DNA of 11,240 nt, from contig CAIXNZ010000090.1 in the NCBI GenBank assembly GCA_903920975.1, forward strand, positions 1-11,240, read 5' to 3'. Under the pieces are notes generated by a model. That model was not told the origin of the DNA and made no database searches. It saw only the letters and a program-made list of their open reading frames with translations. The position numbers were made by a program, and so were the translations under genes. Below, piece by piece: positions 1,216 to 1,304 of the stretch. Numbering within the stretch: the first letter of the stretch is position 1; each line of letters opens with the position of its first letter. The DNA comes from Candidatus Falkowbacteria bacterium. Lineage in GTDB: Bacteria; Patescibacteriota; Patescibacteriia; CAIXNZ01.

Positions 1216-1304
1216 GGCGAAAACCATCGCATGAATGTCACCCTGAGCTTGTCGAAGGGTGCATTCATGCTTCGACATGCTCAGCATGACAATAGGTTTT
1301 CGCC
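1216..1304. repeat. Clamped composite palindromic element E1 (GGCGAAAACC...GGTTTTCGCC) enclosing a family-A repeat unit
   Basis: The outer 10-bp inverted repeat is 1216..1225 / 1295..1304. Inside are GCATGAATG/CATTCATGC arms and the unit TGTCACCCTGAGCTTGTCGAAGGGTG...CATGCTTCGACATGCTCAGCATGACAA (1236..1292). Confidence 0.8.

Follow-up and report, generated by a model that had tools for sequence, protein, structure and literature searches.

A family-specific palindromic frame around exchangeable REP-type modules: a probable composite element in Patescibacteria

The stretch of DNA analysed here, referred to below as the window, is the whole 11,240-nucleotide contig CAIXNZ010000090.1 (C90) of a Candidatus Falkowbacteria assembly (GCA_903920975.1; genome G000, 1.07 Mb, 37 % G+C, 128 contigs), and it carries three elements, E1, E2 and E3, in which a conserved pair of inverted arms, hereafter the frame, encloses interiors that differ from one element to the next. 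We consider it probable (about 0.6) that E1-E3 are copies of a composite, non-coding palindromic element of the repetitive extragenic palindromic (REP) type acting at the DNA level, in which a family-specific frame surrounds exchangeable modules of the REP or REPIN (REP doublet forming hairpin) kind and which is handled by Y1 transposases. The frame encloses one or two such modules of at least three unrelated kinds. The modules also exist alone in many lineages and, judging from the genes with which they are associated, appear to belong to REP-associated tyrosine (Y1/HUH) transposases (RAYTs).

Arms, pairing and distribution of the frame

In the window, GCGAAAAC begins on the plus strand at 1217, 8671 and 10428 and lies on the minus strand at 1296-1303, 8777-8784 and 10510-10517, six matches versus 0.42 expected, a number that 0 of 200 shuffles reach. 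Together with its complement GTTTTCGC it forms three inverted pairs, 87-114 nt apart, confirming the counts and coordinates of a preliminary description of this DNA, and each pair is prolonged by complementary extensions, GGCGAAAACC/GGTTTTCGCC in E1, GCGAAAACGGC/GCCGTTTTCGC in E2 and AGCGAAAACGCT/AGCGTTTTCGCT in E3. Folded as single-stranded DNA, all three elements close this clamp on both strands, with z-scores of -5.0 to -9.6.

The extent of the frame was read from a set of 61 distinct framed copies with flanks, that is, 122 arms; the clamp is closed in all 61 folds. Because these copies were picked on the exact 8-mer GCGAAAAC, positions 1-8 of the arm are uninformative in this set, and variation at positions 7-8 was assessed in a separate search. 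The arm consensus is GG-GCGAAAAC-G-S-C-C (G in 80 arms at position -2, in 97 at -1 and in 103 at 9; C or G in 111 at position 10; C in 93 at 11 and in 77 at 12), and the whole frame is an inverted repeat of 14-15 bp, GG-GCGAAAAC-GSCC ... GGSC-GTTTTCGC-CC. Pairing between the two arms is 57-95 % Watson-Crick from -2 to +13 and drops to 16 % at -3. At position 10, C:G in 29 copies and G:C in 25 give 92 % Watson-Crick pairs versus 42 % after shuffling; with positions 7-8 left free, position 8 was found changed on both arms in 14 elements (T:A in 10, G:C in 3, A:T in 1) and on a single arm in 4, all of the latter being C/T, which corresponds to a G.T pair on one strand. The clamp is real and longer than first described, and its extensions are complementary as had been reported; however, it is mostly conserved in sequence, and true covariation, which had been ascribed to the extension as such, is seen at positions 8 and 10.

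Genome-wide, G000 holds 11 exact pairs, 79-119 nt long, the same pair search returning no short exact pair, and about 7 further copies have variant or decayed arms, among them the compensated variants GCGAAAAT/ATTTTCGC and GCGAAAAG/CTTTTCGC. The family to which G000 belongs, f1, consists here of this genome and 13 sister genomes, G000, G001 and G002 being of one genus. The pair pattern recurs in 12 of the 13 sisters, in 8 genera and with 1-12 copies each, and a reversed-pattern control stays near zero. In a class sample of 301 genomes, a 9-mer version of the frame matched all 8 sampled f1 members versus 2 of the 292 other genomes tallied, and these two matches are chance-like single hits with non-repeat interiors; by this sampling, the frame is specific to one family of Patescibacteria. 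Short or nearly empty frames (GGGCGAAAACGSCC, short loop, GGSCGTTTTCGCCC) number 3 in the 14 f1 genomes against about 90 filled ones, and no solitary arm of the long consensus was found in G000, the two apparent exceptions each being followed by an A module (see below).

Gene context, judged from the longest open frames, was scorable for 58 copies, and all 58 are intergenic: 47 lie between co-directional genes, 6 between convergent and 5 between divergent ones. Many are only a few nucleotides away from open reading frames (ORFs), some stand between housekeeping genes, and one is placed between a leftward promoter and dnaK. The association with accessory cassettes suspected in the preliminary description did not emerge genome-wide, the copies being dispersed in ordinary intergenic gaps. 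This scatter, together with the interiors tied to RAYT genes that are described below, identifies the elements as REP-like repeats, though with an unusual conserved frame. No target-site duplication was found among the 61 copies at offsets 0-4 and lengths 2-8, the counts being at shuffled expectation.

Degenerate 7-nt 'stutter' repeats (AATTATG, ATTAGGA, ATTGGGT, TAATTAC and GGCATAT types; 30-50 nt) adjoin one side of many framed elements, in G000 at C54:4933-4990, C4:8257-8300, C63:8320-8368, C95:16160-16207 and C110:4438-4500, and also at loci L008, L011 and L012. They are likewise present upstream of dnaK in G001:C36, where there is no frame at all.

Interior modules, their transposase genes and their turnover

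The interiors of E1, E2 and E3 proved to be mutually unrelated, structured and exchangeable, the first two of these features having been noted from the window itself. They consist of recurring module types, A, B and C, which are unrelated to each other and each of which occurs in either orientation. The A module is an inverted doublet of a hairpin of the form TGTCA-stem-GAG....CGA-stem, the B module is a 28-29-nt palindrome, GTAG[AG]GAC...GTC[CT]CTAC, and the C module is a pair of hairpins with co-varying stems and the tips C-TTTA-G, C-TAAA-G or C-TGAA-G. The foot tetranucleotide GT[AG]G is present in B modules (GTAGAGAC.., GTAGGGA..) and absent from A modules, C modules and the frame arms. 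The E1-type interior recurs in other framed copies of G000, and the copy at G000:C37:507-595 is the reverse complement of the E3 interior. Modules lacking the GCGAAAAC frame were found in a class sample of 151 genomes, B in 25 and A in 42. In G000 itself the tally is 21 for B palindromes, about 55 for A half-units and 49 for C-type hairpins; the frame encloses roughly one in two of the B units and one in four of the A half-units, but very few of the C hairpins.

The modules lead to transposase genes as follows. A gene on contig C13 (about 8700-9300, minus strand) holds the B 28-mer of E2 in frame, and the HUH and Y motifs that mark REP-associated tyrosine transposases are present in its product (...IIMPNHIHGIL...VVETHCNASLQ...RYYEHII); against the NCBIfam model REP_Tyr_transpos the protein scores 58 bits, below the cut-off, and it was absent from the first Pfam Y1_Tnp genome scan. 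This gene and the B module match subclass 2.4 of TnpA_REP with its 'double-foot' REPs, as described in PMC6006769. Single C-type hairpins flank three RAYT-like genes, on C50, C97 and C6, and the C50 protein passes the NCBIfam model of REP-associated tyrosine transposases (92.7 bits, cut-off 80). Matches to Y1 transposases occur in all 14 f1 genomes, 1-9 per genome. TnpB (PF07282) was not found in G000.

Several types of Y1/RAYT-like genes, up to 8-9 genes, are accommodated within the f1 genomes of about 1 Mb. At locus L162 (G086:C1, a different family), a small GIY-YIG-like gene (MSKRYFVYIMTN...) has an A-type unit immediately upstream, a neighbourhood which hints that the partners of A modules may be small genes for homing-type nucleases instead of a RAYT. 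Hairpins inside the loops of other hairpins were seen at G009:C27:3035-3156, G009:C12:13946-14072 and G000:C97 about 16380-16450, as in the case of a C-type hairpin within one half of an A module; with such cases at several loci, loop-targeted nesting appears to be recurrent.

At orthologous sites the frame stays and its content changes. In G000, G001 and G002 the frame at the E1 site stands directly upstream of a common T-tract and promoter, and its interior is variant 1 of the A module in G000, variant 2 of the same module, within the arms GCGAAAAG/CTTTTCGC, in G001, and a B palindrome in G002. At the C95 site the arms are the same in G000, where they hold an A module, and in G002, where they hold a B module, and at two C63 sites the interior has likewise been exchanged within the kept frame. 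At G000:C110:2410-2500 (C110:2439) and its counterpart in G002:C16, an unframed B element has a shared, locus-specific outer stem (AAAACGYTCTGGCG...CGCCAGAGCGTTTT), its interior (linker, B palindrome, linker) being inverted between the two genomes and the core of the palindrome differing. Bare outer stems at orthologous loci, the presence of which would have proved insertion into the loop, were looked for and none were found. A reading of such elements as invertible promoter switches, considered after the inversion at C110:2439, was rejected on the grounds that the interiors are near-palindromic and merely 60-100 nt long.

Whole elements are also copied. Three of them in G011, including their linkers, are 91-95 % identical in unrelated flanks, and no frame is present at the E1, E2 and E3 loci of other genera, which together indicate that new framed copies arise as whole units. 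In G000, four framed A copies have identical arms and a shared 56-nt module, with one substitution in total, whereas their linkers differ (see below); frame and module are thus each conserved on their own.

At the eno-gpmI island, the right arm of an E2-like element in G001 runs straight into the sequence that follows E3 in the window, and segment 8785-10517, which is bounded by direct copies of (C)GTTTTCGC, is missing in G001 at that point. Cassette 1 is shared by G000 and G002, the latter being the more distant species (eno identity 73 % vs 78 %), so that the gap is best read as a deletion in G001 between the right arms; a microhomology of 8-9 nt can explain this single event. No element is present at the eno-gpmI site in G005. 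The placement at cassette-array boundaries that had been proposed holds for one island edge, which coincides with the arms at the G001 jump, but the association is not general.

Five framed elements lie within 8 kb at G000:C110:4348-12267, and the stretch of C110 from about 6400 to 12500 is without counterpart at the syntenic G001 locus; it may accordingly represent a second island that has frames both within it and at its edges. The paralogous cassette proteins P1, P2 and P3 of the window correspond to 1445-1903, 2069-2563 and 9899-10372 and match no Pfam family, P1 giving a weak sub-threshold match to DUF5726. In G001 and G002, other genes are driven by the same promoter and leader module as these cassettes.

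The features of the window are collected in Table 1. Gene 987..1211 has no terminator-like site other than E1, and with the CTTTTTGTTTG tail behind it, E1 is taken to stand at the terminator position of this gene; ahead of the P2 promoter copy at 1956 lies an ordinary terminator (1917-1944), and E2 and E3 follow canonical terminators. The unframed A module shows that modules can occur without the frame. The TGA stop of the rsmE-like gene (4798-4800) falls within this module, which ends 7 nt before the ATG at 4868 and, overlapping the 3' end of the gene, provides both its last codons and the entire intergenic spacer.

Table 1. Framed elements and unframed modules in the 11,240-nt window
Feature	Position	Evidence or remark
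E1 left arm, G-GCGAAAAC-C	1216..1225	exact 8-mer 1217-1224; pairs with 1295-1304 in DNA folds of both strands
E1 interior, A-type inverted doublet of two hairpins (TGTCACCCTGAGCTTGTCGAAGGGTG / CATGCTTCGACATGCTCAGCATGACA)	1236..1291	repeat families D3, D6, D14
E1 right arm, G-GTTTTCGC-C	1295..1304	followed by CTTTTTGTTTG and a -35 box at 1318
Unframed divergent A-like unit	2660..2740	before hydrogenase large-subunit-like gene; similar stretches in G002, G004
Unframed C-type hairpin pair (CCCACTTCAGTGGG ... CCTGCTAAAGCAGG)	4017..4070	
Unframed A-type module	4790..4861	between rsmE-like and hypA-like genes
E2 left arm, GCGAAAACGGC	8671..8681	8-mer match and folds
E2 interior, B-type 'double-foot' GTAG REP palindrome 1 (GTAGAGACGCGCCATGGCGCGTCTCTAC)	8695..8722	type described for RAYT subclass 2.4 (PMC6006769)
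E2 interior, B-type REP palindrome 2 (GTAGAGACGCATTGCAATGCGTCTCTAC)	8740..8767	identical 28-mer in frame in the C13 RAYT gene
E2 right arm, GCCGTTTTCGC-CC	8774..8786	8-9-nt direct repeat with E3 right arm, bounding the segment absent from G001
E3 left arm, AGCGAAAACGCT	10427..10438	8-mer match and folds
E3 interior, C-type: tips C-TAAA-G (10452-10463) and C-TTTA-G (10485-10494) around a small central hairpin	10446..10500	folds
E3 right arm, AGCGTTTTCGCT	10507..10518	8-mer match and folds

Proposed mechanism and alternative readings

In the mechanism that we propose for the composite element, the palindrome would adopt a hairpin or cruciform fold in single-stranded DNA, such as the lagging-strand template, where the Y1 transposases of the same genomes would act in trans, copying the whole element and inserting or replacing modules in its single-stranded interior. 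Present in both inverted and direct copies, the arms would also provide short stretches of homology through which inversion, exchange of modules and deletion could proceed, and effects on neighbouring genes (the terminator of E1, protection of mRNA 3' ends, insulation of promoters) would be secondary and dependent on the copy. Handling of a single-stranded hairpin by Y1 enzymes, combined with arm homologies, would account for the lack of target-site duplications, the strand symmetry described below and the whole-element copying, as well as for the hairpin-in-loop nesting and for inversion and deletion at the arms.

Several observations weigh against this reading. A 14-nt sequence has been strictly kept across 8 genera, which could reflect a host protein or some other function. 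The four framed A copies of G000 have unrelated linkers of 4-12 nt, a misfit to simple transposition of whole units, and the near-absence of empty frames is a misfit to simple insertion into pre-existing frames; neither process suffices alone, and two are assumed. No transposase (RAYT) linked to the A module was found. The numbers of Y1 genes follow those of frames only loosely across the f1 genomes and give no handle on the enzyme. Finally, in G000 no Y1 or other gene lies between two arms and none is tied to the frame, a local search for arm...gene...arm having yielded nothing but adjacent elements and two whose second arm is decayed or cut off.

The alternative that survives best, unlikely as we hold it to be, regards the frame as a pre-existing hairpin maintained by the host, such as a terminator-like or insulator stem of fixed sequence, whose single-stranded loop is the preferred target of several REP families, the modules being guests and the frame belonging to the host. 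It agrees with the frame being kept at orthologous sites while modules change, with identical modules behind unrelated linkers, with the hairpin-in-loop nesting at other sites, with the position of E1 exactly where a terminator is expected and with a T-tract behind it, and with unframed B copies whose looser, locus-specific outer stems lie between A-runs and T-runs. Against it stand the ratio of 3 short or empty frames to about 90 filled ones in the 14 genomes and the lack of solitary arms. Although the arm sequence is the same throughout the family, the loci are not shared between genera; copies of complete framed elements have arisen at new loci; a T-tract and an upstream terminator are both lacking in 33 of the 47 co-directional copies; and five copies lie between divergent genes.

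Somewhat less plausible still is a selected function in the transcript, as terminator, protector of mRNA 3' ends or RNase processing site, the outer helix being kept by RNA folding. The majority of copies, standing between co-directional genes, are probably transcribed, their folds are very stable, and REPs of E. coli are known to stabilise upstream mRNA (summarised in PMC3733652). A T-rich tail is found behind E1 and few others, namely behind 8 of the 47 co-directional copies used for strand comparison (14 of 61 in the whole copy set). Against a role of the RNA speaks the equivalence of the two strands, the sense strand being more stable in 23 copies and the antisense strand in 24, with 91 G.U pairs in each; in addition, the arms are conserved in sequence beyond pairing, the interiors are unrelated, and 10 of the 47 copies already have a canonical terminator just upstream, as is the case for E2 and E3. 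Rfam 15 gave no match at the gathering score, only sub-threshold matches to AaHKsRNA41 on A modules (22-30 bits vs 97). The framed elements are not generally intrinsic terminators, and in the window E1 alone fits; the insulator, terminator or processing role that the preliminary description left open may thus hold for single copies such as E1 but is not the common denominator of the family.

We rate at about the same low level an extension in which some family-specific DNA-processing activity, be it a Y1/HUH enzyme or a host factor, would recognise the 14-nt arm and use it for crossover, the framed hairpin being a 'socket' where REP modules, and occasionally cassettes as at the eno-gpmI island, enter, flip and leave. 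If this were true, the socket would represent cassette exchange through a single-stranded hairpin, functionally analogous to attC recombination and mechanistically unrelated to it.

The likeness to integron attC sites that was noted at the outset fails in core consensus, bulges, strand bias, array layout and integrase, and site-specific recombination of the attC kind, in which the arms would be core sites and a recombinase would exchange whatever they enclose or adjoin, gene cassettes such as island 2 included, is accordingly rated as highly improbable. What speaks for it is the segment 8785-10517, flanked by direct (C)GTTTTCGC and absent in G001 exactly there, the swapping and inversion of interiors between arms, and the combination of a conserved arm, a variable centre and an attC-like size range. 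The island case, however, is a single event best read as a deletion in G001, and the copies are dispersed singly among ordinary genes. No element lies between P1 and P2 or among the three cassettes of island 2, each of which has its own promoter and terminator. The arm sequences ..CGAAAAC / GTTTTCG.. misfit RYYYAAC/GTTRRRY, in that only AAC/GTT fit and the RYYY/RRR positions read GAA(A)/TTC, and there are no conserved bulged bases. Strand-specific folding, the test used for attC, gave no asymmetry, as seen from the strand counts above. A search for co-occurring recombinases in G000 returned no integron integrase and only two Xer-like tyrosine recombinases, which score 134 and 83 bits against the integron-integrase cut-off of 265 bits and score best as XerC/D.

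The junction GTTTTCGCCC-N7-10-CCTTGACA between arm and promoter, which had also been reported, is present at E1 and E2 but is not a rule of the family, TTGACW being found within 45 nt of an arm in 12 of the 61 copies and the spacing between arm and promoter ranging from 1 to 26 nt. Two further candidates were rejected: operators of a dimeric DNA-binding protein (half-palindrome GGGCG-AAAA-CGCCC), since arms never occur singly and show this variable promoter spacing, and a DNA uptake sequence, there being only 60 copies of the 8-mer per genome versus about 25 expected.

Least credible of all is a classical miniature inverted-repeat transposable element (MITE), that is, a deletion derivative of a DDE-type insertion sequence (IS) mobilised via 14-bp terminal inverted repeats: the small size (80-120 bp), the 14-bp inverted ends, the non-coding, dispersed multicopy state and the whole-element copies in unrelated flanks bear out, though only loosely, the MITE-like appearance pointed out earlier, but target-site duplications are lacking whichever offset or length is taken, a search of G000 within 4 kb found no longer element with such ends, and the interiors are, by their associations, probably REP modules of Y1 transposases that swap independently of the ends.

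Comparison with known repeat systems and significance

REP/REPIN-RAYT systems are known mostly from Proteobacteria, with one repeat family per transposase, whereas in f1 several REP families share a frame, and comparison of the genomes resolves a stable frame and exchangeable modules as two distinct layers. Should the frame be what the mobilising or the host machinery reads, it would offer a natural system for the study of how HUH transposases choose hairpin targets, and it could show the confinement of selfish repeats to harmless intergenic spots in very compact genomes. In practical terms, the elements mark breakpoints, namely the gain and loss of gene islands, inversions and contig ends in assemblies of the Candidate Phyla Radiation (CPR), and they explain why numerous small ORFs have been annotated spuriously.

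Bacterial MITEs (Correia/NEMIS, ERIC, RUP and Nezha) are, like the f1 elements, small, non-coding, bounded by inverted repeats, dispersed, adjacent to genes and able to provide terminators or promoters. They differ in that their insertion duplicates the target site and that they stem from a DDE IS whose terminal inverted repeats they share; the former was not seen in the f1 copy set, nor the latter within 4 kb in G000. Integron attC sites resemble the f1 elements in their imperfect inverted ends, variable structured centre, size of 57-141 nt and AAC/GTT arm ends, to which one island edge within arms may be added, but their core consensus, extrahelical bases, strand selectivity, array organisation and IntI have no counterpart in f1.

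The insertion sequences IS1397 and ISKpn1 enter the loops of REP hairpins in enterobacterial bacterial interspersed mosaic elements (BIMEs). The likeness lies in the loop of a palindrome as the preferred insertion point; the difference is that there a full IS enters a REP, whereas in f1 REP modules sit within a larger conserved palindrome. REPs as targets of IS are also cited in PMC3733652.

Close to the f1 elements are the REP/REPIN-RAYT systems (E. coli REP/BIME with TnpA_REP; Pseudomonas REPINs; subclass 2.4, Quentin et al. 2018, PMC6006769), which share with them extragenic palindromes, often in inverted doublets folding into long hairpins, the lack of target-site duplications, and Y1/HUH genes flanked by REPs or containing one (type C at C50, C97 and C6; type B at C13). 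BIMEs, like the f1 elements, are mosaics of several palindromic units. In contrast, the described systems have their own REP family for each RAYT and no common outer frame, and their RAYTs are usually single-copy, as opposed to the up to 9 Y1 genes of f1 genomes; the f1 frame itself, unlike REPs, has no GTAG head and no known cognate RAYT.

The nearest published description concerns REP units or dimers regularly lying within a conserved palindrome, as mentioned for Anabaena variabilis (GTAG-15), Halothiobacillus neapolitanus (CGTC-1) and also Thermomicrobium roseum (GTAG-23) (Di Nocera, De Gregorio & Rocco 2013, PMC3733652), and, as far as that paper's brief account of A. variabilis and H. neapolitanus goes, no such palindrome lacking a REP was found there. 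These framed REPs, as presented in that account, have in common with f1 that REP units lie inside a conserved outer palindrome which is rarely or never empty, but they concern one REP family, one frame and one species in each case and are touched on in passing. What is new in f1 is that one frame serves at least three unrelated module families, that this frame is conserved and covarying across 8 genera, that the interior turns over or flips at orthologous loci as the frame stays, and that all this takes place in Patescibacteria whose genomes measure about 1 Mb and hold as many as nine Y1 genes.

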